Assembly: GCA_036391015.1 (NCBI GenBank)
Contig: DASWAR010000161.1
Location: 1-41,288 of the forward strand
Direction: 5' to 3'
DNA length: 41,288 bases
Source of the DNA: Terriglobales bacterium
GTDB taxonomy: Bacteria > Acidobacteriota > Terriglobia > Terriglobales > Acidobacteriaceae
Below are positions 1 through 19,856 of the stretch, one piece after another (positions within the stretch are counted from its first letter, which is position 1; the number at the start of each line of letters is the position of its first letter). The position numbers and the translations under genes are program-made. The notes beneath the pieces were generated by a model. That model saw nothing but the letters and a program-made list of their open reading frames with translations. It was not told the DNA's origin and did no database searches.

Positions 1-11
1 TCAGGGAAAGA

Positions 12-37
12 CCCACATTTGCCAAGGCAAATGTGGG
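12..37 (-). terminator. Perfect 12-bp inverted-repeat hairpin downstream of the cytochrome operon (candidate terminator or REP-like hairpin)
   Basis: Sequence is cccacatttgcc-aa-ggcaaatgtggg. It lies about 40 nt past the stop at 76-78 on the minus strand. The following sequence there (tctttccc) is only moderately T-rich. Confidence 0.4.
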
Positions 38-75
38 CCACAGTCGAAACTAGAAATTAGAAACTCGGAACTGGT

Positions 76-1617
76 TTACGGCCCGACGCCGCCGGTGTGA
101 CAGTCGGCGCAATTGACGGCGGTCATGTCGCCCAGGTCAACCGGGTGCTTGAACTTCATGCCCTGCGTGCTGCCGTAGACGGGTTGCCCGCTCTCCAGTT
201 CGGCGAGGACGGTATGGCAGGTATCGCAATCCTTGGTCAGCGCCTTGCCGTCGGGGCTGACGTGATTGCCGTCGTGACAGCGGAAACAGCCGGCGAACAT
301 GAAATGCCCGATGTTGTTCGGGTGCACGCGCCAGTCCACCTTCATCTCGGGGAACATGGTGGTCTTGAAAATCCGCTGCACCTCGGCTATGGCGCCGCGA
401 ATTTCCAGCTCCTTGCTCTTGGCTAACGCGGGATATCTCTCGCCATAGAATTTTTCCAGGTTGGTGGCGATGGCCTGGGTTGCTTCCGGCGTGGAATTGT
501 AGCCGGCGCTGAGAACCGCGACTGCCTGCTGCTTGATGAAGGGCAAGGTCGAATCGATCCGTCTGGCAACCAGCGCCTCGTCCACCGAGTGATCGGGCGG
601 GGGATAGATGTGCGAAGGACGGTTGTGGCAGTCGACGCAATCCATGCGCCGCTTGGGCATGCCGGCAAGCTCCTCCGGCTTGACCGGGTTGTCCTTCGAT
701 TGGTAGACGGTGACGCGCCCGCTCTGGTCTTTCACCTGCACCCACGGGATCACCTGGCGCTGCTTGTCGCTGGTGGCATAGGTGATCTCGTTGGCGATGT
801 TCATGTGCCAGTGAATGCCGGTGGGCGCACCGGTGGTGGGATCGCCGCCGCCGGTGTTGATCAGCATGCGGATCTGCCGGGGCGTATTTTTTTCGTCGCT
901 GCCGTAGTGATAGAAGACCTTCAATTGCGCGCCATAGAACTTGCGCGGCCAATGGCACTGCTCGCAGGTTTCCTGCGCCGGGCGCAGGTTCGCGACCGGA
1001 GTGGGAATGGGCTTGGGATACTTGTGGAAGGTGACGGAGTACACCTGGTAGGCGCCGGAGAGCTTGGAGCGGACGTAAAATCCGGCGCCGGGGCCGACGT
1101 GGCAATCCACGCAGCGCACGCGCGCGTGCGGCGACTGGCTGTAGGCGACGAACTCGGGGTTCATGACCGAGTGACAAAGCTGGCCGCAGAACTGGATGGA
1201 GTCGGTGAACTCGTAGGCGCGGTAGCTGCCGGCCGCGCTGAGGGCGACAAAGACGATGGCGAAGCAGACGAAAAACGCGAAGGCGCCGCGCTGCTGCGGA
1301 TCATTGAGATCGATGCGCGGGTAGCGCGCCATGGACGGCGCCTGAGTGCGCCGGCGCGAGCGCTCCGCCCACATGCCCACCGGGATCAGCAGCAGTCCCA
1401 GGATCATAAACGCGGGCAGGATCATGTACGCGAAGATGCCGATGTAAGGACTGGGCCGGGCGGAAATGTAATCAATAAAAATGAGGAATGCGATGTTGGC
1501 CGCGCTGATGACGGCCAACGCCACGCCGACCAGGCTGATCGGGTTCCGGAACAGGCCCGGCGGCGGGTCCTGCGGGGAGGCGGGCGAGGCTACTTCATCG
1601 GGGGGCTGGTCGGCCAT
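76..1617 (-). CDS. Membrane-anchored NapC/NirT-type heptahaem cytochrome c (ImcH-like quinol dehydrogenase candidate)
   Basis: Tracked ORF is 76..1683. AGGAGG sits 8 nt upstream of the ATG at 1617, which favours that start. Three N-terminal hydrophobic helices are followed by CGQLCH (Cx3CH) directly after TM3. Then come six CxxCH motifs: CVDCH, CEQCH, CVDCH, CFRCH, CDTCH, CADCH. The architecture (3 TM plus 7 haem motifs, about 510 aa) matches the published description of Geobacter ImcH. No alignment was run. Confidence 0.8.
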
Positions 1618-1727
1618 CCAAAATCCTCCTGGATTTCCTGTGGCATGCTGCACCGGCTGCGGCTGCGCCGGTGCAAAAAGCAACCGCGCAGCTTACGTCA
1701 AATGTAATCCGCCGACAAACAACGGCC

Positions 1728-1765
1728 TGTGGCGCAAGTCACAATCGCGTGTGACCTGGACCACA
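1728..1765. promoter_or_regulatory. Two CRP-type half-degenerate palindromes forming one composite palindrome upstream of the ImcH-like gene
   Basis: TGTGG-cgcaag-TCACA at 1728-1743 and TGTGA-cctgga-CCACA at 1750-1765. Each is one mismatch from TGTGA-N6-TCACA. Their centres are 22 bp apart. They lie in the 183-nt gap between the CbcL-like stop (1801) and the ATG at 1617. Confidence 0.5.
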
Positions 1766-1800
1766 GGCCATACCTGCCCGCCGGTTTGCATTCCGGTCCC

Positions 1801-3825
1801 TCAAGGGCGCGGGCCGACCGGTTGCTTGTCCTCCGACTCTTCCGGCGCCGGCAGCGGCTCGGGCGCGCCGCTCTCCGCCGCCGCGGCATCCACGGCCCGG
1901 CGGACGGTCTCGCTGTCGAGGCCGTGCTCCTCCTGGTAATGCTCCACCGACATCTTCCCGTCGTACCAGGCCCAGTTCATCGGATAGACGTCGGCGTCGT
2001 ACATGACCTGGTAGAAGTGCCAGAACAGAATGGCGAGCGTCGCCAGGATGGCCTCGTAGAAGTGGATGGCGGTGGCGACGTCCAGCCACCACCGGGGAAA
2101 CAAGTGTCCGACCTGCACCTTGAACCACAGCGCCAGGCCGGTGCTGGCCATCACGATGGTTCCCCACAGCAGAGCCCAGTACTCCACCTTCTCGCCGTAG
2201 TTGAAGCGCTTGAACTGCGGTTTGGCCACATTGAGGCCGAGGTAGTGGCGCATGGTGTCGCGCGCATCGAGAGCGTCCTTCGGCTCCGGCAGCATGGCGG
2301 CAAACAGGCGCCGTCCCTCGACGCTGACCATCAGGTACCCGAGATGATACAGGCCCACGGCGATGAGCACGCCTCCGGCGGTACGGTGCAGGATGCCGCG
2401 CAGCGTCTCGTTCAGGTTCAGCATCTCGGCGAACCAGGAGTCCGGATACTTCAGCGCGAAGCCGGTGATCACCAGCACGAAGAAGCTGATCAGCAGCGCC
2501 AGGTGCTGCAGGCGCTGGTTGGTATCCATGCGGCGGACGATGCGGCGATGCGCGTCGCGGCGCAGCACCGCCTTGCGGCGCCAGATAATCAGGTTGTGCA
2601 GCAGCATGGCACCGATGGTGAAGAAAATCAGCGTCAGGTACATGCGGCGGATCCAGCGCACCGCGACGCTGCCGATATCGGCGGAGAGTGGCGCGTCCAC
2701 GTGCACTTTGCCCTGGATAAATTTTTCGGTGACGCCGGGATGGCACTGGCCGCAGGTCTTGATCAGGTTGGCGTGGTTGACGGTTGACTTGGGATCGGAG
2801 GACGGCAGGATGTTGTGCGCGCCGTGGCAGCTGGCGCAATTGGCGACCACCTTGGATCCCGCCTTCGACGCCAGCCCGTGATAGCTCGCCAGGTAGGTGC
2901 TGCCGCGACGGCCCTCGACACCGAACTCGCCCGCCAGGCGCACGCTCTCATGGCAACGCGCGCAGGTGCTGCGCGCCAGGTTGTAGGCGCTCACCGACGA
3001 TGCGGGATCGCTGGGCGCCTTGATGGTGTGAATGCCGTGACAATCGGTGCACACCGGCGCCTGCCAGTTGCCGCGTGTCACCGCCTGCCCGTGAACGCTG
3101 GTGATGTATTCCTGCTCGACCTTTTCATGGCACTTGGCGCAGGTAAAGGGAACGTTGGCCTTGGCAATCGAGGACTTCGGATTGCCGCCGTTCAGGATCT
3201 CGTGCGCGCCGTGGCAATCGGTGCAGACCGCGGCCTTGCTCTTGTCGCCTTCCTTGGTGACCGATTTTCCGTGCACGCTCTCTTCGTAGTTGATGAACGG
3301 CTGCGCGCTGTGGCCGCTGGCCTCCATGACGAACTTCTGGCCGTGGCAGGCGCCGCAGGTGACGGGAATGTTGGAGCGGTGCACCTTCGCCTTCGGATCG
3401 GTGGCGGGCAGGATCTGGTGCACGTTGCCGTGGCAGTCCTGGCAGGAGGCGGCGAGTTTGTCGCCGCTCTTCACTGCTTGCGCGTGGAAGCCGCGGTTGT
3501 AGGCGGCATCCTGGTCGGCATGGCAGGTGGCACACTTGGGCTTGGCGGGCGGCGTGTCGTGCGGCGCCGACTTGATGTCGGTGTGGCAGTCGGTACAGGC
3601 GAACATTCCGTGCACCGAGCCCTTGAACTTCGCCTCCTCCACCGCAAGCGAGACCTGCTTCCCGCCCACTTCCTTGGTCATGCTCGCGTCGGCGTGGCAA
3701 GCGAGGCATTCGGCGCCGGTGATTTTCGGCTGTTTCGGCTGCTTCGCGGCCCACGAAATCGCGCTGAATAAAACGAGCATGAATGCCAGCGCGATCGCAA
3801 TCCGTGTACGGCTCGGTTTCAACAT
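1801..3825 (-). CDS. Undecahaem cytochrome c fused to a C-terminal FdnI/HydC-type cytochrome b membrane domain (CbcL-like)
   Basis: Signal peptide, then 11 CxxCH motifs (CLACH, CTDCH, CATCH, CQDCH, CGACH, CTDCH, CAKCH, CTDCH, CARCH, CASCH, CGQCH), many in the doubled-CxxCH arrangement. The C-terminal ~270 aa contain several TM helices with conserved His residues (HRTAGG, HLGY, IHFYEA). This c::b fusion architecture is what is described for Geobacter CbcL. Confidence 0.85.
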   Translation of the reverse strand: MLKPSRTRIAIALAFMLVLFSAISWAAKQPKQPKITGAECLACHADASMTKEVGGKQVSLAVEEAKFKGSVHGMFACTDCHTDIKSAPHDTPPAKPKCATCHADQDAAYNRGFHAQAVKSGDKLAASCQDCHGNVHQILPATDPKAKVHRSNIPVTCGACHGQKFVMEASGHSAQPFINYEESVHGKSVTKEGDKSKAAVCTDCHGAHEILNGGNPKSSIAKANVPFTCAKCHEKVEQEYITSVHGQAVTRGNWQAPVCTDCHGIHTIKAPSDPASSVSAYNLARSTCARCHESVRLAGEFGVEGRRGSTYLASYHGLASKAGSKVVANCASCHGAHNILPSSDPKSTVNHANLIKTCGQCHPGVTEKFIQGKVHVDAPLSADIGSVAVRWIRRMYLTLIFFTIGAMLLHNLIIWRRKAVLRRDAHRRIVRRMDTNQRLQHLALLISFFVLVITGFALKYPDSWFAEMLNLNETLRGILHRTAGGVLIAVGLYHLGYLMVSVEGRRLFAAMLPEPKDALDARDTMRHYLGLNVAKPQFKRFNYGEKVEYWALLWGTIVMASTGLALWFKVQVGHLFPRWWLDVATAIHFYEAILATLAILFWHFYQVMYDADVYPMNWAWYDGKMSVEHYQEEHGLDSETVRRAVDAAAAESGAPEPLPAPEESEDKQPVGPRP

Positions 3826-3853
3826 GCCAGGACCCTTCTCTCTGCGCGCCGGG

Positions 3854-4807
3854 CTACCGGTACGCGAACAGCATGGCGTAGATGATCCACACCACGATGC
3901 TGAAGCCGATGGACAACGCCACCCACGCGAACACGCGAATGGTCTTCACCACGATGGCCGGTTGCGGATCCGCCAAATGCTGCTCCAGGCGGCCGCTGGC
4001 GACCAGCGCCTGGTACTCACGCGGCTTGTCCCGCTTTAATTCCGCCAGCGGCATGTGCCCGGTGAACACGGTGGTGTCCATGGGAAATTTTTCCGGCCGC
4101 AGGTGGGTGTTGAAGAAATGGACGGTGAAGATGAACCCGGTGGCGAGCAGCGCCTCGTCGCTGTGAATAATGGTGGCGACATTGATGAACGACCCGGGAA
4201 TCACCTGCGTGAAAAACACCGGGAACCACAGCGTCAACCCGGTGGAGCCGATGATGAACACGCCCCAGAACACGGCGAAGTAATCGAATTTTTCCCAGTA
4301 CGTCCAGCGCCCGTACTGCGGCCGCTCGCCCTGCCCCACGAACCACTTCATGGTGCCGACAAACTCCAGCAGGTCCTGCTTCATCGGCAACATCGAGTTC
4401 GGGCCCAGGAGCAACGCCTTCCAAGATCCGTACTCGCGCTTCTTGAGCTTGAATAGGTCAACGATGTGAGTGATAAACGTGGCAAACATGATCACCGCGG
4501 CGGTGCGGTGAATGAAGCCGGCGGTCTGAAATCCGCCCAGCATGCGCGACATAGACCGCGCCCACCCGGTGTAGGAAAACTTCAGCGACAATCCGGTCAG
4601 CGCCAGGGTGATGAAGCTGACGATCATGCAGACATGCAGCGTCCGGTGCAGGTAAGTGAAGCGGACGAACTCGCGACGGTCGGGCGGTGCCTCCGGCCCC
4701 CATTCATCGCTGGCGATGACCAAGGCATGATCGGCGGCGGCGGCCTTCGGCGCCGCGGGATTCGCTTCCGCAACGACGGTGTCGATCGGCTCTTTAACGG
4801 TCGCCAT
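3854..4807 (-). CDS. Stand-alone FdnI/HydC-type cytochrome b membrane subunit
   Basis: 317 aa with multiple TM helices and conserved His residues (HRTLHV, HRTAAV, IHSDEA, HFFNTH). By eye it aligns colinearly with the C-terminal domain of the 674-aa fusion protein. Its start overlaps the stop of the upstream 19-haem gene by 14 nt. Confidence 0.8.
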
Positions 4808-6821
4808 CGTGCTTCTCCTCCCCCGGTTTTTGTTCGGCAGCTTTGCGGGCCGCTTCCTCAGCGCGCAGTTCGCGGCGCATCTGGAAGGCGCGCGGCAACC
4901 ACAACAACGTGTGCACGCCGCCGACGACGAACGTCCCCAGCAGCAGCGAAGTCATGCCCCAGAACGTCCAGAACAGGAACGGGTACTTCTTGGGATCGTG
5001 GTGGGTGGCGTGCGTCAGGTATCCGGCGAAGCGCCGCGTCGCGCTGGCGTGGCATTTCTGGCAGGTCTGCACGACGTTGGCGCGGCTGAGGTGGGAGCGC
5101 GGATCGGTGACCTTCAGGATGTCGTGCGCGCCGTGGCAGTCGTAGCACTTGGCGGTCTTGGTGTAGCCGAGCCGCGAAACTTTGCCGTGATACGTATCGA
5201 AGTAAGTCTTCGCAATCTCGACGTGGCAGCGGCCGCACTTGGCCATGATGTCGAGCTTGAAGCCGTCCTCGTCGGCGCGCCGGATCTGGTGCGCAGTGTG
5301 GCAGTCGTTGCACACCGGCAGCTCTTCCTTGGTGCTGGAAACGGTCCGCGAGTGAATGCTGTTGACGAACTGCTCCTGAATGCCGTGGTGGCACTGGCCG
5401 CAGGTCGCCGGGAGGTTTTTGGGATTCACTGTGGATTCCGGATCCGACTTGGGCAGTTCGCGGTGCGCGCTGTGGCAGTTGGTGCAGGTCGCCGTCACCG
5501 TCAGGCCGCTCTTCAGCAGGCCCTTGCCGTGAATGCTCTCCTGGTAGTGCTGGATGATCTCGTGCTGCGTGCCGGTGTAGCGCATCGCAGCCTTCTTGCC
5601 TTCGCGGTGGCAGCGCGCGCACAGCGTGGGGATATTGGTGGCGAAGGTCACCGATTGTGGGTCGTGCTTGCCGAGCACGCGATGCGTGCCGTGACACTCC
5701 TTGCAGACGGGCGCGTTGGGGTCCTTCTTGGCGAAGAGCTGGCCGTGCTTGCTGCGCTGGTAGTCCTGCCCGATCTGCTCGTGGCACTTGGAGCAGTCCA
5801 CCGCCGTGACGATGGTCTCGCAGGGGCGCACACGCGAGGCGTTCACTTCCGAGTGGCACTGGCTGCAGGCCACCTTGGCATGACGGGACGACGCCACCTC
5901 CTCAACGTGCACTCCCAACGGCCGCCCATCGCGCGCTTTCAGGTTCTCGTCGGCGTGGCAACGCATGCAGTCCGCGTCGGCCATGCCCTGGGTGTAGAAG
6001 ACCTTCCGCACCTTGTGCGGCTGGTGGCAATCGACGCACGCCGGCAGCACGTGCGCCTCTTTCTCCCAAAGCGCGCCTTTGATCGTTTTGCGGTGGACAT
6101 CCTCGATGCGCGCATGGCACTTGGTGCAGGTCTTGGCGATGTTGGCCCGCGCGATCGAGGAGCCTGGATCGGTGTGCGGCAGGATGTTATGCGCCGTGTG
6201 GCAGGAGGCGCAGTTTGCCGTCACCGTCAGGCCTTTCTTCAGCAGGGCCTCGCCATGCATGCTCTCGGCATAATTCTCGATGATGTTGTGCTGCTCGATC
6301 TTCCGCTGCGTCTGTACCGGCGTGCCTTCACGATGGCATTTGCCGCAGGTGAACGGCACGTTCATCGGCGACACGGGAGAGCGCGGGTCCTTGACGGGCA
6401 GGATGTCGTGATTGCCGTGGCAACTGGTGCAGCGCGGCGCCAGAGGGTCACCGTGGGCGACGGCGCGGCCGTGCAGCGACTTGGCGTGCTGCTTGGCCTC
6501 CTCGCCGTGGCAGGTGCCGCAGTCCACTCTCTTCAGCGGCGTTTCGTGCGGCAGGTCCTTGCCCTCGAGATCGGCGTGGCAGTTAGTGCAGGACAGCGAT
6601 CCGTGGATGGATGACGAGAACTTCTTCGCCTCGACAAACAGCGAAACCGTGCGCCCGGCGCGCTTGGTGGTGAGCGTCCTGTCGGCGTGGCAAGCCAGGC
6701 AGGTGTCGTTGGGTTTGTCCTCGGCCCGGGCGGCGCCGCCGGCGAGCAGCAGGAACGCGGTGAACAGCAGCAGCGCTAACAGGATTTGCGTCCGGGCCGT
6801 GGTGCGTCGGGATACGGTCAT
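4794..6821 (-). CDS. 19-haem cytochrome c with signal peptide and C-terminal TM anchor
   Basis: 19 CxxCH motifs counted in the translation. Repeated doubled-CxxCH modules of the form C..CH..H.I...DP.S....N....C..CH. A C-terminal hydrophobic helix (FLFWTFWGMTSLLLGTFVVGGV). The ATG at 6821 begins a typical signal peptide (MTVSRRTTARTQILLALLLFTAFLLLAGGAARA). The tracked ORF extends to 6869. Confidence 0.88.
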   Translation of the reverse strand: MTVSRRTTARTQILLALLLFTAFLLLAGGAARAEDKPNDTCLACHADRTLTTKRAGRTVSLFVEAKKFSSSIHGSLSCTNCHADLEGKDLPHETPLKRVDCGTCHGEEAKQHAKSLHGRAVAHGDPLAPRCTSCHGNHDILPVKDPRSPVSPMNVPFTCGKCHREGTPVQTQRKIEQHNIIENYAESMHGEALLKKGLTVTANCASCHTAHNILPHTDPGSSIARANIAKTCTKCHARIEDVHRKTIKGALWEKEAHVLPACVDCHQPHKVRKVFYTQGMADADCMRCHADENLKARDGRPLGVHVEEVASSRHAKVACSQCHSEVNASRVRPCETIVTAVDCSKCHEQIGQDYQRSKHGQLFAKKDPNAPVCKECHGTHRVLGKHDPQSVTFATNIPTLCARCHREGKKAAMRYTGTQHEIIQHYQESIHGKGLLKSGLTVTATCTNCHSAHRELPKSDPESTVNPKNLPATCGQCHHGIQEQFVNSIHSRTVSSTKEELPVCNDCHTAHQIRRADEDGFKLDIMAKCGRCHVEIAKTYFDTYHGKVSRLGYTKTAKCYDCHGAHDILKVTDPRSHLSRANVVQTCQKCHASATRRFAGYLTHATHHDPKKYPFLFWTFWGMTSLLLGTFVVGGVHTLLWLPRAFQMRRELRAEEAARKAAEQKPGEEKHDGDR

Positions 6822-6860
6822 CCAGTACCTGCTCAGCGTGCCGTGGTAACCCCAGTACTG

Positions 6861-6874
6861 GTGACACACGTCAC
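6861..6874. promoter_or_regulatory. CRP/FNR-type palindrome GTGA-N6-TCAC (site 1)
   Basis: gtgaCACACGtcac. Its centre is about 46 nt upstream of the ATG at 6821. Confidence 0.6.
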
Positions 6875-6920
6875 GCAGGCGGGGTCATTCCTACGTTCTC
6901 AGATCGGCGACCAACCGGCT

Positions 6921-6934
6921 GTGAGTCGCCTCAC
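6921..6934. promoter_or_regulatory. CRP/FNR-type palindrome GTGA-N6-TCAC (site 2)
   Basis: t-gtgaGTCGCCtcac-g, i.e. TGTGA-N6-TCACg. Confidence 0.6.
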
Positions 6935-6942
6935 GTCTGAAG

Positions 6943-6956
6943 GTGACTGTAATCAC
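6943..6956. promoter_or_regulatory. CRP/FNR-type palindrome GTGA-N6-TCAC (site 3)
   Basis: g-gtgaCTGTAAtcac-c. Its centre is 22 bp from site 2. Confidence 0.6.
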
Positions 6957-6982
6957 CCCGGCTGTGGTTATCACCTGACGAC

Positions 6983-6996
6983 GTGAGCTCCATCAC
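6983..6996. promoter_or_regulatory. CRP/FNR-type palindrome GTGA-N6-TCAC (site 4)
   Basis: c-gtgaGCTCCAtcac-c. Its centre is 40 bp from site 3. Confidence 0.6.
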
Positions 6997-7104
6997 CTGG
7001 GCAAGCGGCCCCCGCCGCGATCGGACGCGTCATGATGAATCGGCTCAAGGATGGGCCATGCGGGGCAAAAAATGAGGGCGGCACAATTCGCCACGCTCCC
7101 CTCG

Positions 7105-7134
7105 GGCAAACAAAACGCCCGCCGAAGCGGGCGT
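7105..7134 (-). terminator. Rho-independent terminator after the truncated Crp/Fnr paralogue
   Basis: Minus strand reads aacgcccgc-uucg-gcgggcguu followed by UUUGUUUG. It starts about 20 nt after the stop at 7157. Confidence 0.8.
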
Positions 7135-7156
7135 TGTTAGGACGGCGATGATCTCC

Positions 7157-7675
7157 TCAGTTGCTGTGCGCGGCAGCGTGCGAGGCAGGGTGCACCAGGT
7201 GGGGCCGGCGCGCGCGCGCTAGTCCGATCGACCGCACTCGGTCATAGGCCTGATGCAGGTCCTGGCTGAGCAAGTGAACCACCTGCAGGCAGGCCACGCG
7301 GTGTTCGCGCAGGAAGTGCAGAAGGTCCTTGCGGCGGACGAAAGCCACCTGCGAAGTGTCCAGCATTTCCGCGGTCACTTCGTAGGGCCGGCCCGCCATG
7401 CTGGCGCTCAGGCCCAGCACCTCGCCCGGCCCGGCAACGCGCAGCATCAGGCGCTTGCGCACGTCGGAACAGACCGAGAGCTTGGCGCGCCCTTCGCACA
7501 AGACATAAATTCCCCGCGGCTGTTTGCCTTCGGCGAACAATGTCGCTCCGCGCGGCACGCTCGTGGTGGTCTTAATGGCGTCGAATGCCTGTAGCGCTTC
7601 GGCCGGCAAATCACAGAAAACCCGGTCCGGCCGCAGCTCGCAGGTAAAGCAGCTCTGGTGCTTGGCGCTTTCCAT
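7157..7675 (-). CDS. Crp/Fnr-family paralogue with cNMP-binding (effector) domain and dimerisation helix but no helix-turn-helix
   Basis: Aligns by eye with the neighbouring 253-aa regulator from SCFTCELR... to ...RVRSIGL. It then diverges and stops about 20 aa later. The ATG at 7675 (MESAKHQSCFTC) is preferred by homology. The tracked ORF starts at a GTG at 7726, inside a palindrome. Confidence 0.7.
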   Translation of the reverse strand: MESAKHQSCFTCELRPDRVFCDLPAEALQAFDAIKTTTSVPRGATLFAEGKQPRGIYVLCEGRAKLSVCSDVRKRLMLRVAGPGEVLGLSASMAGRPYEVTAEMLDTSQVAFVRRKDLLHFLREHRVACLQVVHLLSQDLHQAYDRVRSIGLARARRPHLVHPASHAAAHSN

Positions 7676-7710
7676 GACACTGGAATGATGCTTGCCGCGG
7701 GGAACCAAGA

Positions 7711-7728
7711 CAGTGACTGCTATCACTG
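7711..7728. promoter_or_regulatory. CRP/FNR-type palindrome CAGTGA-N6-TCACTG (site 5)
   Basis: cagtgaCTGCTAtcactg with perfect 6-bp arms. Its centre is about 44 nt upstream of the ATG at 7675, the same geometry as site 1. Confidence 0.6.
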
Positions 7729-7850
7729 TTTGTAGTGATGCATAACCGAAAAATCAAAGCTCGGAGCGGGCTTCGGCAGGAAATACAAGGAGCTTTCTCC
7801 GCCGCACCCGTCATGGCGCAGCGAAGTTCCGGCGAAGACTTGAGACGTCC

Positions 7851-8612
7851 CTAGACGCTGGCCAGGGCTTTCAACGCCGCCTTGTTGCGGATCAGCAACG
7901 TCGAACCCTTGGCGTGCACGATCTGCCGCTTCTTCAATTCGGCGAACAGACGCGTGACCGTCTCGCGCGAGGTCCCGATCATCTGCGCGATCTCCTCGTG
8001 GGTGAGCGCCATCTTCACGCGCGGCTCCTGCTTGTTGGCTTCCCCGTTCCTCGAGCTCCACTCCAGCAGCAGCTTGGCGAGCTTTTCCGCCGCCGAGTGT
8101 GAAAGCCCCAGCGAGCGGATCTCGTGGCAAGCGGTGTTGTACTTCTCGCTCAATTGCTCGGCCACGCGGAAGCAGGCCTCGCTGTGCTCGCGCAGGAAAC
8201 GCAGAAAATCTTCGCGCTTGACGAAGTTGACCTGGCAGGGATCGATCGTCTCCGCCGTGAGTTCGTACGGTTTGCCGGAAACGGTGGCGCTGAGCCCGAG
8301 CACTTCGCCGGGTTCGGCGATTTTCAGGATCAAGGTTTTTCCGTCGGTGGAACAGATGGAGAGCTTCACCCGCCCTTTGCAGAGGACAAAAATTCCGCGG
8401 GGCGCCTGGCCTTCCACGAACAACACTGCGCCCTTGGGATAAGCACTGGCGTACTTAATAGCTTCGAATGATTGCAGGGCGGCAGTGGGCAAATCGCAGA
8501 ATATCCGGTCGGCCCGGAGCTTACAGGTGAAGCAGCTTTCTATGATATCGAGTCCATAAGGTGATAACACGACACAACCCCCTGTGACATTCCATCTTAC
8601 CCTTCCGGTCAA
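7851..8612 (-). CDS. Crp/Fnr-family transcriptional regulator (full length, with N-terminal Cys triad)
   Basis: cNMP-binding beta-roll (FVEGQAPRGIFVLCKGRVKL...GEVLGL). C-terminal HTH reads THEEIAQMIGTSRETVTRLF; its RETVxR matches the E. coli CRP recognition helix RETVGR. N-terminal motif is C-x2-C-x8-C (CFTCKLRADRIFC). The tracked start at 8612 is TTG. A GTG at 8570 preceded by GGGGG is a plausible alternative. Confidence 0.88.
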   Translation of the reverse strand: MTGRVRWNVTGGCVVLSPYGLDIIESCFTCKLRADRIFCDLPTAALQSFEAIKYASAYPKGAVLFVEGQAPRGIFVLCKGRVKLSICSTDGKTLILKIAEPGEVLGLSATVSGKPYELTAETIDPCQVNFVKREDFLRFLREHSEACFRVAEQLSEKYNTACHEIRSLGLSHSAAEKLAKLLLEWSSRNGEANKQEPRVKMALTHEEIAQMIGTSRETVTRLFAELKKRQIVHAKGSTLLIRNKAALKALASV

Positions 8613-8623
8613 GAAAAAACTTT

Positions 8624-8657
8624 CGAACGGTCGTTAGGCGCTCCGAACGGACGTTCG
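8624..8657. promoter_or_regulatory. Two copies of an AACG-N2-CGTT palindrome in the divergent crp-like/PEBP promoter region
   Basis: cgAACGgtCGTT at 8624-8635 and cgAACGgaCGTTcg at 8644-8657. The second has perfect 6-bp arms. Spacing is 20 bp. Confidence 0.3.
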
Positions 8658-8764
8658 TGCGCGCCCGCGGAAACCAGCATGGACACGGGGTTTCCGCCGT
8701 TTCCCGTGGCGCCCTCCGCACCCACTTGGCAACCCGCTCCGGCTTCTGATGAAATGGCAGGGGT

Positions 8765-9376
8765 ATGTGGCGAATGTCGCTCCTGATTGTGACCTTGCTC
8801 ACCGCATCGGTGTACATGCAGACCGCGGCAGAAGCGCATGGAATCTGGGGTTCCGGCGGTTTCGCTCATCTCAGGGCCGGTCTTTACGCGACAAATTACG
8901 CCGCGCATACGGAGGGAGCCATGCAGGTCAACAGTAAATTGATTTCCCCCGGCGGCGAATTCCCGAAACGGGAAACATGCGACGGCCAGAATACTTCCCC
9001 GCAACTGGCCTGGAGCGGCGCCCCGCCGACTACGAAGTCTTTTGCCTTGATCCTCGACGATCCTGACGCTCCGGGCGGTACCTTTACTCATTGGATGGTG
9101 TGGAACATTCCCGCCGGCACGCATGAGTTGCCGGAGAACCTGCCGAAGACCGCGGAATGGGCGGACGGCGCCCGCCAGGGCCGCAACGATTTCGGCAAGG
9201 TCGGTTACGGCGGACCGTGCCCTCCGCCGGGAAGACCGCACCGCTATTACTTCCGTTTATATGCGCTCGACAACGCACCCGCCGTCAAACCAGGCGCGGG
9301 CCGCGAGGAACTCGAGCGCGCCCTGCAAGGGCATATTCTTGCCCGCGGCGAACTGATGGGGCGCTACGCCCGTTGA
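8765..9376 (+). CDS. YbhB/YbcL-family phosphatidylethanolamine-binding protein (PEBP/Raf kinase inhibitor-like)
   Basis: Family-typical motifs: NTSPQLAWSGAPPTTKSFALILDDPDAP, THWMVWNIP, GRNDFGKVGYGGPCPPPGRPHRYYFRLYALD. The N-terminus is hydrophobic and signal-like. Confidence 0.88.
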   Translation: MWRMSLLIVTLLTASVYMQTAAEAHGIWGSGGFAHLRAGLYATNYAAHTEGAMQVNSKLISPGGEFPKRETCDGQNTSPQLAWSGAPPTTKSFALILDDPDAPGGTFTHWMVWNIPAGTHELPENLPKTAEWADGARQGRNDFGKVGYGGPCPPPGRPHRYYFRLYALDNAPAVKPGAGREELERALQGHILARGELMGRYAR

Positions 9377-9613
9377 CCGGTTTCGCGCTCCCACCAGCAC
9401 GTCCCGCGGATCTTCAACCCCTGAATGCGCAGGCCGAATCACGGAGGTAACCTCCCCCGATTACGCCCGCTATCTTCCCCCCTTTATCGTATCGCGATAG
9501 GTTATGCGGCAGTTGGGTCACATCGTCGCTCAAGGGCCAAATGGGCGCGGTCCGGCAAACCTGCCGGGCCCGCCCGTCCAAAACGGCTTGCGACGCTTCG
9601 GGGGAGTACGGTT

Positions 9614-9721
9614 ATGTGGCGTGCGATTTATTTCTGGGTGGGGCTTCTGATGGCGCGGTACCTGTTCCGGCGGCGCACCGTGCACATTGACCTTGATCGC
9701 CTGCGCAGCGCCGGAATGTAG
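9614..9721 (+). CDS. Possible 35-aa single-TM small protein
   Basis: GGGGAG sits 7-8 nt upstream of the ATG. Sequence is MWRAIYFWVGLLMARYLFRRRTVHIDLDRLRSAGM. There is no homology evidence. Confidence 0.25.
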   Translation: MWRAIYFWVGLLMARYLFRRRTVHIDLDRLRSAGM

Positions 9722-9797
9722 CTCGAGCCGGTGGAGCCTCGAGGCAAAAGGCGCCTGGCTGGCCGCGCTCTCACGACCGGCAACTAACACCTCGGGA

Positions 9798-10664
9798 CTA
9801 TTTTTTCCGGTACCTCGAAAACTGGTGGTCCGCCACTCTCCGGCAACTCATCCACCGCCACCACGGCGCATTCTCGAAGGTAAATCCCGGCGCATGGAAG
9901 GTCGTCGGCCGGTACGGCGACGGGTTGCGCACGTCCGCCGCTGATTTCTCCTGCTCCGGCGGCGCCAGTTGTCCGACCTCGACCGGCGACATGGTCACGA
10001 ACTTTTCATCCACCAGGCCGGCGCGCGACAAATGTCCATACAGCGTCGGGCCGCCCTCGCACAGCAAGTACTCGACGCCAAGTTCGCGCCGCAGCAGCCC
10101 GGCGGCGGCGGCCAAGTCCACGAACTTGTCTTCGCCCGCCGCGATCACCCGCACGTGCGGATGGGTTTGCTTCTCCGCCAGCCGCTTGGCCCCGTTTTTT
10201 GTGGTGACCACCACCGCGTCCACCAGTTCACCGTCGAACACCCGGAAGGCCGACAAGTCCAAGGTTGCCGAGCCGGTCACGAAAATGTTCATTTCCCGCC
10301 GCTTTCCCAGCCTCTGCCGCAAACGCCGCAGTTCCGCGTCCATGATGCGGAACACCGGCCCGCGCGGCCGGTCGCCGAGCTCGGTCTCGCCGAGCAGCGT
10401 ATTCGCCCCGACCAGCACTGCGTCGGCATGCGTCCGCAGCAGGTCCATCAGCCAGCGGTCCGGTTGCGAGCGCGCAATGTCCGACCCGGCTGCGTGTTTG
10501 CCCTTGAACGACACGATCCCGTCCAGCGACTGGACGAAATTCGAGTAGATCCACGGCCTGCCCGCCGGCGCCACGGGAAATCCCAAGCGACCGTACGGCT
10601 CGTAGGCCGCGTCCTCCACCGCCGCCGGCTCACCCTCGTCAAACAAGACTTCGAACGTTTGCAT
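9798..10664 (-). CDS. RibD C-terminal domain / dihydrofolate reductase-like family protein
   Basis: SNFVQSLDGIVS...ADAVLVGANTL...IFVTGSA...YLLCEGGPTLYGHL..GLVDEKFVTMSPV matches the deaminase-reductase C-terminal fold pattern. Confidence 0.75.
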   Translation of the reverse strand: MQTFEVLFDEGEPAAVEDAAYEPYGRLGFPVAPAGRPWIYSNFVQSLDGIVSFKGKHAAGSDIARSQPDRWLMDLLRTHADAVLVGANTLLGETELGDRPRGPVFRIMDAELRRLRQRLGKRREMNIFVTGSATLDLSAFRVFDGELVDAVVVTTKNGAKRLAEKQTHPHVRVIAAGEDKFVDLAAAAGLLRRELGVEYLLCEGGPTLYGHLSRAGLVDEKFVTMSPVEVGQLAPPEQEKSAADVRNPSPYRPTTFHAPGFTFENAPWWRWMSCRRVADHQFSRYRKK

Positions 10665-10728
10665 GACGGAATTGTACGTTGCGAGTTATGAATCCTGAGT
10701 TGTGAGTAGAGAAGCGGATGCTGTGAAC

Positions 10729-11337
10729 TCAGAGCGCCAGCTTCTGGCGAACGAACGCGACCACTTCCTCGCTCACGTAGCGCGGCGGCCGCACCCGGAA
10801 CACCGGCTTGCCCTGGATCAGCTTGAGCGACACTCCGCTCCACGCCGGCAGCGCATCGGGCGGCGCGTCGTGCAAAATTACCGCCGACGCAAAGTCCAGA
10901 AACTCGCGCGCCGTGGGCTTGAAATCCGCCGTGCCGTAGTCCAGCACGGTCAAATACAAGTCCGGCCGCAAAAACTTCATCACGCTATTCGACTCGACGA
11001 TCACGTTCTCGGCGCCCGCGATCTGTTTGCGCAACGCCGGCATCGCTTCCGCCAAATTGCCCTGGCGCGTCCGCACCCACAGCGAACGCTCCGCCCCCGA
11101 CACCAGGAACCGCGACGTGTCGCTCTCTCCCGAGCGGTCGCGCTCTTCGATGATGGCCCAGGAATCATCGGCGGTGGCGCAGTCGCATAGTTCTGAGCTT
11201 GCCGAGCAAACCCCGTGCCCAAATTGCGTGATCTTGACGGCGGTCCAGCGGCGCTCCGGCATGGCGGCAATCAGCCCCGCCACCACGCTGGTTTTTCCCA
11301 CGCTCCGCGAATGTCCGCCGATAACAACTAGGGCCAT
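10729..11337 (-). CDS. P-loop NTPase, MobB-like (function uncertain)
   Basis: Walker A motif GGHSRSVGKTS at the N-terminus. VKITQFGHG and VIVESNS segments resemble the MobB layout. This is a weak call. Confidence 0.4.
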   Translation of the reverse strand: MALVVIGGHSRSVGKTSVVAGLIAAMPERRWTAVKITQFGHGVCSASSELCDCATADDSWAIIEERDRSGESDTSRFLVSGAERSLWVRTRQGNLAEAMPALRKQIAGAENVIVESNSVMKFLRPDLYLTVLDYGTADFKPTAREFLDFASAVILHDAPPDALPAWSGVSLKLIQGKPVFRVRPPRYVSEEVVAFVRQKLAL

Positions 11338-11353
11338 TTGTACCGTTTCAAAA

Positions 11354-11408
11354 GGTAGTCCGTAGCCGGTAGTCCGGTCCGGACTACGGACTAGCGACTA
11401 CCGACTAC
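11354..11408. repeat. Quasi-palindromic low-complexity repeat (gtagtcc/ggactac words) overlapping the lpxD stop codon
   Basis: gtagtccgg-t-ccggactac is a perfect 9-bp inverted repeat at 11369-11387. It is flanked by further gtagtcc / gactac words. The lpxD TAG (11405-11407) lies inside the last word. Confidence 0.6.
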
Positions 11409-12400
11409 GATTTTTTCGCCAGTCTCGCCAGCACGGCCAGCTCTTTCAAATACTGTCTGATGGGCCTCGCCGGCGTTCCCCAAAACAGAATGCCCTTGCC
11501 GCGGATCACTTTTCCGGTCGGCACGCCGCACTGCGCGCCCAAGATCGCGCCACTCTCGACGGTGACGTGGTCCGCGATCCCCACCTGCCCGGCGACCACC
11601 ACGCCATCTTCGATCACAGAGCTGCCCGAAATCCCTGTCTGCGCCGCGATCACTACATTTTCGCCGATGCGCACGTTATGCCCGACATGCACCATGTTGT
11701 CCAGCTTCGTGCCTCGCCCGATCACGGTCGCGTCGAGCGCGCCCCGGTCCACGGTGCTGTTGGCGCCGATCTCCACATCGTCACCAATCTCCAGCCTGCC
11801 GATCTGCGGAAATTTCGTGTACCGGCCGCTCTGCTCATCGCGCACGAATCCGAAACCGTCGCTGCCCAGCACCGCCCCGGCATGCACGATCACGCGGTCG
11901 CCCACGGTCGTGGCCGGATAAATACTGACATTCGATTTGATGTCGCAACCTGCCCCAAGGCGCACGCCCGCGCCGATAAACGCGCCGACGCCAATCGCAG
12001 TGTGGTCACCGATGGTGACTTTTTCCGAAACCACCGCATGCGCTCCGACGGCAACTCCCTTGCCCAGCCGCGCGCTCTCATGCACAACCGCACTCTCGTC
12101 GATTCCTGGACCTGGCCGTCGCACCGGACACAACAACTCCGACGCCTTGGCGAACGCCAGCCTCGGCTGCCTGGCGATGACCAGCGACTTGTCTGGCACG
12201 GGTCTCTGACCTGTGTCCGCAAACTCACCCGCAATCACCGCCGCTGCTTTCGACGCAAGCGCCGCCGCCAGATGTCTTTCGTTGTCGACGAACACGAGAC
12301 CCCGCGCCGTTGCCGACTCGATGCTCGCCACCGAGCCGACCTCAACGTCTGCGCCCACCACCCTGCCGCCGATGTGTTTTGCAATCTCGCTGAGCTTCAT
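11405..12400 (-). CDS. lpxD: UDP-3-O-(3-hydroxyacyl)glucosamine N-acyltransferase
   Basis: The N-terminus MKLSEIAKHIGG... is LpxD-like. It is followed by a long run of hexapeptide repeats (left-handed beta-helix) and PQIGRLEIGDDVEIGANSTVDRGAL. The ATG at 12400 is preferred over the tracked 12436. Confidence 0.88.
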   Translation of the reverse strand: MKLSEIAKHIGGRVVGADVEVGSVASIESATARGLVFVDNERHLAAALASKAAAVIAGEFADTGQRPVPDKSLVIARQPRLAFAKASELLCPVRRPGPGIDESAVVHESARLGKGVAVGAHAVVSEKVTIGDHTAIGVGAFIGAGVRLGAGCDIKSNVSIYPATTVGDRVIVHAGAVLGSDGFGFVRDEQSGRYTKFPQIGRLEIGDDVEIGANSTVDRGALDATVIGRGTKLDNMVHVGHNVRIGENVVIAAQTGISGSSVIEDGVVVAGQVGIADHVTVESGAILGAQCGVPTGKVIRGKGILFWGTPARPIRQYLKELAVLARLAKKS

Positions 12401-12437
12401 GGTTTGCCACTCGCAATCACAACTCGGACCTCGCAAT

Positions 12438-12573
12438 TAGAACTGGTTTCAAAAATACATTTTCGCCTCAGGAAAAATGTCCCTCAGGGGCTAAAGCCCA
12501 CTATTTTTGCGGCCTCGATCGGCACGGCTAAAGCCGTGCCCTACCCAAAGACTGATGTTTGAAACCAGTTCTA
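12438..12573. mobile_element. 136-bp MITE-like element with perfect 16-bp terminal inverted repeats
   Basis: Left end tagaactggtttcaaa (12438-12453) is the exact reverse complement of right end tttgaaaccagttcta (12558-12573). The interior carries hairpins ggcacggc-taaa-gccgtgcc and gggc-taaa-gccc. It sits between the lpxL-like gene and lpxD. The final cta is the TAG stop of the lpxL-like gene. Confidence 0.6.
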
Positions 12574-13470
12574 GTACAACGGCTGCTCTCCCTCCGGCCT
12601 TGTCTTCCATCTCCGATGCACCCACAACCACTGGTCAGGAAATTTCCGCACGTACTCCTCGATCACGCTGGTGAACAACTGGGTGGCGCTGACCACGTCG
12701 CGCTCGTCATCGCCGGATTTCGGCAGCGCCAGCCGCGGCGCAAACGTAATGAGGTATTTTCGCCGCACATCGTCCCAGATGGTGAACGCCGGCACCACCG
12801 ACGCATCGGTGCGCAACGCCACCCGCGCGATGCCGCTGGCGGCGCAGGCCGGCACGCCAAAAAAATCTACGAACACGCCCGCCGGCGGGGTCATGTTCTG
12901 GTCCATGAGCAGCCCGACCGTCTCGCCCGCGCGCATCGCCGCAATCAGCCCGCGCGCGAAGTCCTGCTTTTCGAAAGTCGAGTTGCCGTGCAACGTCCGA
13001 TAGCGTTCCACCAAGCGGTCGAGATACGGATTGTCCAGCGCGCGAACCACGATCCGCAACCTGTGTCCGTGGATCGAATGTACGAACGACCCGACCTCCC
13101 ATCCTCCCAGGTGCGCGGTCAGGAACAGCACGCCCTTGCCGCGACGTTGCGCCGCGTCGAAATTCTCGAAGCCCTCATACACCGCGACCTGCGAAACGTT
13201 GTCCCGCGTGTAGCGCGGGAACCGGCAGAATTCCGCCAGTTGCCGGCCCAGCGATACAAACACGCCGCGCACGATCCTCCTGCGCTCGGCAGCCGCCATT
13301 TCCGGATAGGCAATCTCCAGGTTGCGCAGCCCCACCTTTCGCAATCGCCGGTGCAGGCGATACACCGCGCCCGCCAGCAGAATGCCGAGCGTCCGCGCCA
13401 ACGGGCGCGGCAAGGCGCCCAGGATCTTCACGACCGGCCAGACCAGCGCATACTCGAGACGATGGCGCAT
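12571..13470 (-). CDS. Lipid A biosynthesis (Kdo)2-lipid IVA acyltransferase family protein (LpxL/HtrB-like lysophospholipid acyltransferase)
   Basis: The N-terminal TM segment, NLEIAYPE, GKGVLFLTAHLGGWE, and the overall length and layout are typical of the family. It is adjacent to lpxD. Confidence 0.78.
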   Translation of the reverse strand: MRHRLEYALVWPVVKILGALPRPLARTLGILLAGAVYRLHRRLRKVGLRNLEIAYPEMAAAERRRIVRGVFVSLGRQLAEFCRFPRYTRDNVSQVAVYEGFENFDAAQRRGKGVLFLTAHLGGWEVGSFVHSIHGHRLRIVVRALDNPYLDRLVERYRTLHGNSTFEKQDFARGLIAAMRAGETVGLLMDQNMTPPAGVFVDFFGVPACAASGIARVALRTDASVVPAFTIWDDVRRKYLITFAPRLALPKSGDDERDVVSATQLFTSVIEEYVRKFPDQWLWVHRRWKTRPEGEQPLY

Positions 13471-13579
13471 TTGACGGGTGACCGGACGCTAGCACCCGAC
13501 CATTTCACTGTCAATCCGAGCAAGGCCCCGGTTCTCGTAACCTTGTGCCCCAACCATTTATCATCTCTTTGCTCAAAGG

Positions 13580-14146: not shown

Positions 14147-14151
14147 AGAGG

Positions 14152-14178
14152 AGTTGGGAGTTAGTAGTTGGGAGTTAG
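14152..14178. repeat. Tandem 14-nt period repeat (agttgggagttag x2)
   Basis: agttgggagttag-t-agttgggagttag, immediately after the cytochrome c stop codon. Confidence 0.6.
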
Positions 14179-14230
14179 CGGGACGGCATTCAGGTTATGA
14201 ACCAACGCCGGCTTGAGCTGAGAATGGAAT

Positions 14231-14320
14231 CCCTCTGGGGCTAAAGCCCAGTATTCTTGCGGGCTCGGCGGCATGGCTGAAGCCGTGCCCTTCCCAAAAG
14301 CGACTCTAAACCAGTTCTAG
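14231..14320. repeat. Partial second copy of the 12438-12573 element (right part only)
   Basis: Colinear with 12481-12574, same orientation: ccctc[a/t]ggggctaaagccca...ggca[c/t]ggct[a/g]aagccgtgccc...aaaccagttctag. The hairpin is kept through a U-G wobble. The left terminal repeat is absent. It ends 4 nt before the SYLF gene stop. Confidence 0.6.
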
Positions 14321-14323
14321 CAG

Positions 14324-15079: not shown

Positions 15080-15130
15080 AATACTACAGCTTAGATGCTG
15101 CCGGTGGCGGTGGCGTCGAAGGTGCGGGAA

Positions 15131-15168
15131 AAGAAAAAAAGCCGGGAGCGAGGCCCAGTTCGCTCCCG
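15131..15168 (-). terminator. Rho-independent terminator
   Basis: Minus strand reads cgggagcga-acugggcc-ucgcucccg followed by GCUUUUUUUCUUUU. Confidence 0.8.
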
Positions 15169-19445: not shown

Positions 19446-19856
19446 TCAGACATTGGCTTTCTGATGGCACTCGGTGCACTTGGTCGGAGCTTTCTTGCCC
19501 TTGGCGTTTTCCGCCGTGTGGCAATCGATGCAGGTGCCCTTCTTAGCCGTGGCATCGTGGAATGCCAGTTTGAAAGTGGTCTTCATCGGGGCCGCGGCCG
19601 CCTTAACGTGGCACTCGCTGCAAGCCTGCGTCTTGCCGGTGGCAGCTTTCTCCGGTTTGGACGCATGGTGGCAGGTCTCGCACTTGATGTTGCGGTCCTT
19701 GACGTGAGCCGAATGCATGAACTTCACGCCGCCCATGGGATTGCCCTTGAGGATGACCGTATCAGGCGCTGGCTTGTCTGCGGCAAAAGCGGGACCGCAC
19801 ATGACAAATAGCAGGGCGAGGCCCAACAGAACAGCAAACAGTTTGGAAATCTTCAC
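19446..19856 (-). CDS. Periplasmic tetrahaem cytochrome c3 (class III)
   Basis: Signal peptide plus four CxxCH motifs (CETCH, CSECH, CIDCH, CTECH) in about 110 mature residues. GTG start preceded by GAGGAGG. Confidence 0.88.
   Translation of the reverse strand: MKISKLFAVLLGLALLFVMCGPAFAADKPAPDTVILKGNPMGGVKFMHSAHVKDRNIKCETCHHASKPEKAATGKTQACSECHVKAAAAPMKTTFKLAFHDATAKKGTCIDCHTAENAKGKKAPTKCTECHQKANV

Follow-up and report, generated by a model that had tools for sequence, protein, structure and literature searches.

Two families of inner-membrane quinol oxidoreductases described in Geobacter, ImcH and CbcL, provide the closest known comparison for the genes reported here. The ImcH family is needed for acceptors above about -0.1 V (Levar 2014; Zhong & Shi 2018), and its members are defined by three N-terminal transmembrane (TM) helices, an atypical CX3CH haem motif beside the membrane domain, and six CX2CH motifs, or five to nine outside Geobacter (PMC6295460). 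Homologues of CbcL, MtoC and MtrH, which are fusions of a multihaem cytochrome c with a cytochrome b (c::b fusions), are found in metal reducers and oxidisers alike and are clustered with mtoAB. Zhong & Shi (2018, PMC6295460) counted 19 homologues of ImcH in Acidobacteria, and only 2 of CbcL, and found no mtrAB or mtoAB adjoining any imcH; identities between Geobacter and non-Geobacter ImcH homologues were 31.5-49%, and their CbcL family list includes other haem counts, one 19-haem protein among them. Here we analyse a stretch of 41,288 nt (the window), taken from the forward strand of contig DASWAR010000161.1 of assembly GCA_036391015.1 (Terriglobales bacterium, Acidobacteriaceae), in which four cytochrome genes, A to D, encode an ImcH-like protein, a CbcL/MtoC-like fusion, and a third, split module of the latter type. 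We consider it probable that these genes form a low-oxygen- or redox-induced operon whose three menaquinol:haem-c modules are made together for extracellular electron transfer (EET) of the MtrAB type.

The four genes lie head to tail on the minus strand, and the operon comprises the following features:

Gene A: 4794..6821, minus strand; 19-haem cytochrome c with a signal peptide and one C-terminal TM helix that carries a histidine, H637, thus the half with the haem domains and TM1 of a split CbcL-type protein; 675 aa from its ATG, equal in length to collection record P0396.

Gene B: 3854..4807, minus strand; 317 aa; stand-alone cytochrome b of the FdnI/HydC type, the TM2-TM6 half of that split protein.

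Gene C: 1801..3825, minus strand; 674 aa; 11-haem cytochrome c fused to a cytochrome b of the FdnI type, CbcL/MtoC-like.

Gene D: 76..1617, minus strand; 513-aa ImcH-like protein with three N-terminal TM helices and a quinol-site region of the NapC/NirT/NrfH type.

Terminator-like 12-bp inverted repeat: 12..37, minus strand; CCCACATTTGCC..GGCAAATGTGGG, read from the sequence directly 3' of the stop codon of D.

The open reading frames (ORFs) and a motif count confirmed the layout proposed in a first-pass annotation of this DNA, namely four co-directional genes with a 14-nt overlap between A and B, gaps of 28 nt between B and C and of 183 nt between C and D, and 37 haem-c motifs (19 CxxCH in A, none in B, 11 CxxCH in C, and six CxxCH plus one CxxxCH in D). 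That number of CxxCH-type motifs in about 2,200 residues cannot have a chance origin, and full-length homologues were found for all four proteins. The start codon of D is an ATG that, together with a GGAGGA ribosome-binding site, is kept in six relatives. The same annotation saw no catalytic subunit or terminal reductase, and this holds: the motif count found no CxxCK haem motif in A-D, and no molybdopterin, Fe-S or sirohaem protein adjoins the block in the window or follows D in relatives, where this region was seen because the window stops 75 nt past D. The family readings of D, C and A+B also held against published motif and TM coordinates and against Pfam, NCBIfam and PDB matches, with NapC/NirT found in D, exclusively multihaem c3/c7/doubled-CxxCH domains in A, and Ni_hydr_CYTB in both B and C. 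A hydropathy scan gave Sec-type signal peptides for A and C and resolved one TM helix in A (C-terminal), four clear ones in B, five in C and three in D; a fifth helix of B (around 207-235), which carries an invariant His, lies below the scan threshold.

D fits the definition of ImcH, as judged from published motif and TM coordinates together with Pfam and PDB matches. Its haem motifs comprise an atypical CGQLCH (CX3CH) at residue 144 and CxxCH at residues 169, 218, 327, 444, 464 and 503 (513-aa numbering), and all seven are invariant in 68 homologues. In GSU3259, the Geobacter ImcH of 507 aa, the motifs are located at 132, 156, 205, 311, 428, 448 and 486, and the TM helices at 13-35, 45-67 and 100-122 (Zhong & Shi 2018, PMC6295460, Table S3). 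The two proteins are collinear, with motif intervals differing by at most 3 residues (25, 49, 109, 117, 20 and 39 in D; 24, 49, 106, 117, 20 and 38 in GSU3259), and the intervals in Koribacter Acid345_2712, a listed acidobacterial ImcH homologue, are 24, 49, 108, 117, 20 and 39 (PMC6295460). The TM helices of D were placed at about 22-40, 59-77 and 111-129 by the hydropathy scan and at 26-51, 57-91 and 107-138 in an AlphaFold2 model. The models of D (pLDDT 53.5, pTM 0.34) and of A (mean pLDDT 61, pTM 0.36) are too poor for fold searches and usable for TM helices only.

The part of D that takes in TM3 and the first haems matches the NapC/NirT N-terminal region PF03264 (44.3 bits against a cut-off of 24.1, E 2.1e-11, residues 135-222), and D also matches NrfH as a family (TIGR03153, E 2.8e-12) and as a structure (PDB 2j7a_C, E 2.9e-5, residues 134-232). 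Three residues near haem 1 that were highlighted as protonatable in the ImcH study, E127, K173 and Y188, have their counterparts in D at an offset of +12, as D139, K185 and Y200; across the 68 homologues the first position is D or E, the second an invariant K, and the third Y or F. More than 7,900 homologues of D were found, and among the matches listed, the best and the named ones all belong to Terriglobales or Acidobacteriota.

On the basis of published motif and TM coordinates and of Pfam and PDB matches, C was assigned to the CbcL/MtoC/MtrH type of c::b fusions. Besides its multihaem domains, it matches Ni_hydr_CYTB (47 bits, E 3.1e-12) and the formate dehydrogenase gamma subunit (E 1.2e-11), and its residues 432-609 match FdnI (PDB 1kqf_C). 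Six histidines in the TM helices (H410, H441, H480, H494, H588 and H603) are 100% conserved in 81 homologues, 76 of which have five TM helices in the hydropathy scan. The family of C is very large and modular, with 6344 representative clusters; its commonest form has 11 haems, and fused forms with 13 to 22 haems are found within it. Two candidates for a Geobacter-type reference were rejected. P0227, which has nine haems with motif positions like those of GSU0274, belongs to lineages of the Marinimicrobia/Ignavibacteria type and is not the Geobacter CbcL, and PDB 28pb_A ("Cytochrome c", 278 aa), which matches the first haems of C with E 1e-6, is not identifiable as CbcL because its motif spacing differs.

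Genes A and B together represent a true split gene of the fused 19-haem c::b proteins known from other phyla, as their alignments indicate. The haem region of A consists of two tandem copies of the haem domain of C, each about 33% identical to it, and B matches Ni_hydr_CYTB (31.7 bits, cut-off 30.1) and formate dehydrogenase gamma, is of the prokaryotic cytochrome b561 type, and shares 31% identity with the b domain of C (E 1e-28). We assign A and B to a true split because both align end to end with a single fused protein, P0174 from Hydrogenedentota (957 aa, 19 haems, six TM helices): A is collinear with its residues 57-682 (54% identity) and B aligns to residues 688-957 (57% identity), which places the break in the cytoplasmic loop that follows TM1. 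The TM layout of A+B was resolved as 1+4 in the scan and is probably 1+5. A frameshift artefact was considered and rejected, since B, within its overlap with A, has its own ribosome-binding site (GGAGGAG) and since the split is also seen on at least 10 contigs and in about 120 clusters of proteins of about 675 aa without a b domain.

The conserved histidines are distributed over both halves of the split. H637 of A is invariant in two sets of homologues (8 and 44) and is equivalent to H410 of C, and His 54, 58, 100, 114, 215, 230 and 235 of B are invariant; the counterparts of the six TM histidines of C are thus H637 of A together with H58, H100, H114, H215 and H230 of B. As the helix with the invariant His stays on A, A and B should have to assemble for a complete b-haem site.

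To learn how widely this arrangement is distributed, species-representative genomes were scanned with C, which yielded 229 genomes with relatives, and the best 80 loci were analysed by tblastn. The closest matches to the window proteins were metagenome-assembled genomes (MAGs) of Terriglobales, the nearest locus (L007) being a SPRUCE peat MAG with 91-94% identity, and the host is a Terriglobales acidobacterium of soil or peat. Adjacent C and D genes were found in 64 of about 80 loci and the regulator pair R1/R2 (described below) in 53; together with a radical-SAM/SPASM gene, these four genes form the conserved core. The first-pass annotation had regarded such an arrangement as unusual for an acidobacterium, a view that we do not retain, since C-D adjacency is this frequent and acidobacterial ImcH homologues were already published (PMC6295460). 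In Melioribacter and in a Marinimicrobia-like genome, the CbcL-like genes stand without an ImcH-like neighbour, and for this reason the CbcL-like/ImcH-like pairing looks typical of the Terriglobales lineage.

The complete A-B-C-D block occurs on at least 10 other contigs. A-B stands upstream of C in the window, L001/L006, L003-L005, L007, L008 and L071, and the order A-B-C-D is also found in the more distant L085 and L086 (Ca. Sulfotelmatobacter). Because the C-D pair is conserved without A-B in most genomes, A-B appears as an add-on, and because A-B lies between C and D in L029 (588-7610, order C-A-B-D), it appears as a two-gene cassette inserted at different points of the C-D core.

Genes for an outer-membrane conduit are encoded in the clusters of several relatives. 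In L001 and L003-L006, a gene for an MtrA-like decahaem protein and one for an MtrB/PioB-type porin lie between the regulators and A, and in L008 such a pair is divergently oriented. The MtrA-like proteins scored 262 and 268 bits against a DmsE-family cut-off of 192, and the porin reached 192.7 bits with MtrB_PioB TIGR03509, below the cut-off of 240, with a Pfam MtrB_PioB match on record. An MtrA-like gene was present in about 21 of the 80 loci, including L013, where it is followed by a 789-aa ORF without a Pfam match, a candidate porin. In L085 (4.2-Mb contig ERZ25039602 contig_13514, positions 1-16528), a supercluster starts with a Crp gene, an HTH-less Crp gene (without the helix-turn-helix, HTH) and an MtrA-like gene, continues with an 899-aa ORF without a Pfam match (a porin candidate) and a monohaem cytochrome c, and ends with a Rieske protein plus cytochrome b (bc-type), a 443-aa multihaem protein, and A-B-C-D; four quinol-linked modules are thus gathered in one cluster, which has perfect regulatory boxes at 2498 and 6457.

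Downstream of D, the genes for the radical-SAM protein and a YwiC-like membrane protein directly follow the imcH-like gene in most loci (L007 13174-15397; L001 11730-14007), and YwiC-like, another Crp gene, ScdA and NorB are often found in this region of the relatives. The radical-SAM protein is AhbD-like (TIGR04545, 466 bits, cut-off 500); AhbD is the oxygen-independent enzyme converting Fe-coproporphyrin III to haem (PMC10452713). This neighbour suggests an oxygen-independent supply of haem for the cytochromes.

The dedicated regulator pair that had been proposed for the operon was found upstream of it and is of the Crp/Fnr type. The features of this region, and two more that bear the same palindrome or lie next to it, are:

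Candidate operator: 6861..6874, no strand assigned; perfect palindrome GTGAC-N4-GTCAC, 40 nt upstream of the A start codon.

Second palindrome: 6943..6956, no strand assigned; one mismatch, 82 nt upstream of the first.

Hairpin: 7114..7135, minus strand; intrinsic-terminator-like, after R1, nine pairs (seven G-C) followed by a T run.

R1: 7157..7726, minus strand; Crp/Fnr-like protein with a cNMP-binding domain and no HTH; likely start at ATG 7675, giving 172 aa.

R2: 7851..8612, minus strand; full-length Crp/Fnr regulator with cNMP-binding and HTH_Crp_2 domains; box at 8789-8802 upstream.

Palindrome in the C-D gap: 1729..1742, no strand assigned; one mismatch, in a block conserved among the closest relatives.

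Tetrahaem cytochrome c3: 19446..19856, minus strand; secreted, 136 aa, Cytochrom_CIII with E 3.8e-16.

The hairpin at 7114-7135 separates the regulators from the cytochrome operon. In the 53 loci that have it, R1 always adjoins a full-length R2, and it may modulate R2 or act as its heterodimer partner. R1 has six conserved cysteines, including a C-x2-C-x8-C motif, that are 96-100% conserved among these loci, and the N-terminal C-x2-C-x8-C and further cysteines of R2 are 100% conserved in 53 homologues. For R2, no equivalog model in NCBIfam reached its cut-off. The cysteine clusters of both proteins recall the Fe-S-binding sensors of the FNR type, with a spacing in R2 that differs from that of E. 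coli FNR.

The palindrome, whose core is the CRP-type GTGA-N6-TCAC, was matched 11 times in the window when up to one mismatch was allowed, where 1.25 matches were expected, an enrichment of about 9-fold. Besides the sites listed above, it is found at 7713-7726 (before R1), at 8789-8802 (before R2) and at 19961-19974, about 100 nt upstream of the tetrahaem c3 gene; the remaining sites are at 17608, 30854, 36464, 5638 and 5806. The box pair upstream of A recurs with equal 82-nt spacing in L003-L005 and L007. When a match within -300..+30 nt of the gene start was scored across loci, a box was found for R1 in 96% of the loci, for the AhbD-like gene in 91%, for ScdA in 89%, for A in 78%, for R2 in 74%, for C in 71% and for D in 10%, with 7% at random positions. 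YwiC is also among the genes with a positionally conserved box in relatives, and the AhbD-like gene there has a pair of boxes 22 nt apart in front. The classical FNR box TTGAT-N4-ATCAA is not enriched in the window (13 matches against 7.7 expected), with none upstream of the operon. The palindrome thus marks a conserved candidate regulon of the operon, both regulators, the AhbD-like synthase, ScdA and the tetrahaem c3, for which R2 would be the reader of the box. We conclude that this predicted regulon also supplies oxygen-independent haem synthesis and nitrosative-stress functions, and most likely it responds to low oxygen or to redox or nitric oxide (NO) signals.

The gap between C and D (1618-1800) measures about 200 nt in most of the 64 loci. 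In close relatives (L003-L008) it holds the conserved blocks TCACACGCGATTGTGA, then GTTTGTCAGCGGATTACATTTGACGTAAGCTGCGCGGTTGC, and a weak terminator-like hairpin is located at 1709-1725. The gap could hold an internal promoter, act as an attenuator or be a site of processing, and the box at 1729-1742 may belong to such a promoter of D. Across the family, a conserved Crp/Fnr box of D's own was rejected, being present in only 5 of 64 loci, and a sigma-70 promoter scan of positions 1-9000 gave no match.

Our preferred reading of these data is that three inner-membrane modules would link the menaquinone pool to periplasmic haem-c chains. D would be an ImcH-type, NapC/NirT-like heptahaem protein with a quinol site near haem 1 on the periplasmic face; C would join an 11-haem chain to an FdnI-type dihaem cytochrome b; and A+B would follow the C-like design with a duplicated 19-haem chain, their assembly completing the b-haem-binding helix bundle. 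The cysteine-rich R2 would bind the GTGAC-N4-GTCAC boxes and switch the operon on, each module would oxidise menaquinol, and the haem chains would hand electrons over to carriers in the periplasm; a candidate carrier within the regulon of the operon is the tetrahaem c3 at 19.4 kb, whose gene has a box. From there, electrons would proceed to an MtrA/MtrB-type outer-membrane conduit, encoded in the cluster of relatives and absent from the window, and on to an acceptor outside the cell, for instance Fe(III), humic substances or peat organic matter. If D works like NrfH and ImcH, its quinol oxidation would be electroneutral and take place at the periplasmic face. In the FdnI-type modules, electrons would cross the membrane through two b haems, and therefore the energetic cost or yield could differ from that of D. 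Such a difference is the basis of the gate idea in Geobacter, and the notion that three gates here divide the work by redox potential is an analogy with it.

Several observations weigh against this reading. Within the 41-kb window there is neither an MtrA/MtrB homologue (tblastn with the L001 proteins gave weak haem-motif matches) nor an extracellular cytochrome, and the closest relative, L007, has no MtrAB at its locus. C, which had been described as CbcL-like, is indeed of the c::b fusion type but departs from CbcL in having 11 haems and five TM helices instead of nine and six. The regulon holds ScdA and sometimes NorB, which points to nitrosative stress and not to metal respiration. Lastly, no MtrC-type surface cytochrome stands beside the MtrAB-like pairs of the relatives, as in the Fe(II)-oxidising Mto/Pio systems, which use a CbcL-like MtoC. 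The idea of an electron-export conduit, as put forward in the first-pass annotation, therefore gained the MtrA/MtrB-like genes of the relatives' clusters as support, but the direction of flow is not fixed by sequence because Mto/Pio-type Fe(II) oxidisers use such parts too.

This last point leads to the first alternative, in which electrons from Fe(II) or reduced humics would enter through a Mto/Pio-type MtrAB-like conduit and pass via the modules to the quinone pool, or else to an acceptor in the periplasm or membrane, a role that has been proposed for MtoC in Fe(II) oxidisers. The service of MtoC in Fe(II) oxidisers, the clustering of its family with mtoAB, and the MtrA/MtrB-like pairs without an adjacent MtrC-like gene all agree with it, and a nitrogen-oxide sink is conceivable because NorB and ScdA share the island and its boxes. 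Nevertheless, we consider such a reversed flow unlikely. We know of no report of Fe(II)-oxidising physiology in Terriglobales, although no search aimed at it was made, the three stacked quinol-linked modules mirror the repertoire of Geobacter reducers, and the oxygen-independent haem synthase of the regulon fits anaerobic respiration in general. ImcH, moreover, has so far been implicated in quinol oxidation alone (PMC6295460).

The presence of ScdA and NorB in the palindrome regulon also bears on a second reading, that the modules are general quinol dehydrogenases of an anaerobic or nitrosative-stress regulon, feeding soluble periplasmic reductases or detoxifying enzymes encoded elsewhere (acting on nitrite, NO, hydroxylamine, peroxide and others) in the manner of NapC, NrfH and CymA. 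In the NapC/NirT/NrfH superfamily, to which D belongs, service to periplasmic enzymes is typical, and the window and L007 lack an adjacent outer-membrane conduit. This reading is improbable as well: no partner reductase stands beside the block in about 85 loci inspected, the extra genes inserted in the clusters are porin-cytochrome pairs or further cytochromes and not enzymes, and the proteins carry no CxxCK haem or other catalytic signature.

A variant of the export reading, which we put forward very tentatively, would make A, held to the cytochrome b of B by a haem-ligating helix that both share, an inner-membrane-rooted haem wire that bridges much of the periplasm and docks directly to the MtrA-like cytochrome encoded next to it in relatives, without soluble carriers, the shorter C and D serving diffusible ones. 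If true, it would provide a continuous path from quinol to the cell surface, and the operon would be the missing inner-membrane entry point of EET in peat Acidobacteriota. Least probable is a reading in which the modules form one assembly or are redundant paralogues from a recent duplication that do not divide the work by redox potential: A, B and C are indeed paralogous, the position of A-B varies (L029, C-A-B-D), and no differential expression is visible because all modules sit behind a single boxed promoter, but C-D is stable without A-B in most genomes, so that A-B is not an obligatory partner, and the duplication is old and maintained, since A and C share only about 33% identity and have chains of strongly different length (19 against 11 haems).

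Some features outside the operon were also recorded. About 15 kb from it, at 21570-22514 (minus strand), lies a gene for a protein matching the Pfam family 'Cytochrome C assembly protein' (PF01578), probably a CcsA/ResC-like component of System II. At 34815-34860 (minus strand), a match to the Acido-Lenti-1 small RNA of Rfam (RF01687; 50.2 bits, gathering score 37) fits an acidobacterial origin. A fatty-acid beta-oxidation set at 32323-38686 (plus strand), consisting of a FadB-like 3-hydroxyacyl-CoA dehydrogenase/enoyl-CoA hydratase fusion, a thiolase and an acyl-CoA dehydrogenase, is unrelated to the operon.

Terriglobales rank with the most abundant bacteria of acidic soils and peat, and their anaerobic respiration is little studied. 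With its conserved C-D core, the operon is a concrete candidate for the exit of electrons from the quinone pool, a step unaddressed by a 2026 preprint on the EET1/EET2 systems of peat (bioRxiv 10.64898/2026.05.27.727921). It also offers a natural experiment on the idea of one quinol oxidase per redox window in Geobacter, as the homologues here would be co-transcribed and not encoded apart, a clear instance of a b-haem-binding helix bundle divided over two polypeptides, and a predicted regulator with its operator. Should the function be confirmed, the C-D pair with the palindrome could serve as a genomic marker for anaerobic respiration in soil metagenomes.

Compared with the known systems, D has a length similar to that of ImcH (GSU3259; 513 vs 507 aa), three TM helices, and one CX3CH plus six CX2CH motifs, and both proteins resemble NapC/NirT/NrfH around TM3 and the first haems. 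The window gene differs in directly following CbcL-like genes in an operon, whereas Geobacter imcH lies at a separate locus, and in being placed under a Crp/Fnr-type regulon, whereas Geobacter imcH is described as constitutive. With CbcL (GSU0274), MtoC and MtrH, C shares a periplasmic multihaem domain and a HydC/FdnI-like cytochrome b with conserved TM histidines, and its last four haem motifs are spaced, and set off from TM1, as they are in CbcL. A and B together restore the six-TM layout of these proteins, and the SbA3 protein WP_105502606.1 (931 aa) of the published CbcL list has 19 haems spaced as in A; in contrast to CbcL, A+B carries 19 haems and is divided between two polypeptides at a point behind TM1, and it represents the c::b fusion solely in this two-polypeptide form.

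The split recalls CbcBA (GSU0593-0594), in which adjacent genes encode a separate b subunit and a multihaem c subunit, and in which b-haem ligation is proposed to be completed by a His on the C-terminal TM helix of the c subunit. CbcA has seven haems, against 19 in A. CbcB is stated to lack sequence homology to the b domain of CbcL, whereas B is homologous to the b domain of C, and regulation is by sigma-54/BccR in Geobacter, as opposed to the Crp/Fnr type here. Membership in CbcBA was rejected given the 31% identity of B to the CbcL-type b domain of C and the Crp/Fnr-type neighbours, and the likeness is architectural only.

With the Mtr/Mto/Pio systems, the clusters of L001, L003-L006, L013 and L085 have in common an MtrA-like protein and a porin, which share cluster and regulatory motif with the inner-membrane modules; the window itself, unlike for example the mtoAB-mtoC of Dechloromonas/Gallionella, comes without the outer-membrane part. 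The imcH-like genes of these relatives share clusters with MtrAB-like genes, whereas Zhong & Shi found no such case. Several quinol oxidoreductases are likewise stacked in one cluster in Rhodoferax ferrireducens (cymA-cymA-mtrH-mtrABC). The peat preprint concerns Terriglobales too, including SPRUCE MAGs, and a proposed EET to peat organic matter; it proposes that Acidobacteriota of peat express outer-membrane porin/multihaem conduits, with ImcH, CbcL and inner-membrane quinol oxidases unmentioned. In the literature, where many matches for ImcH with Acidobacteriota were judged unrelated by title, we found no prior account of an acidobacterial cbcL-like/imcH-like operon, of a split 19-haem module, or of the regulator pair with its palindrome, in agreement with the earlier statement that the block is not a named system. 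What is new here is a new and conserved arrangement of known families.

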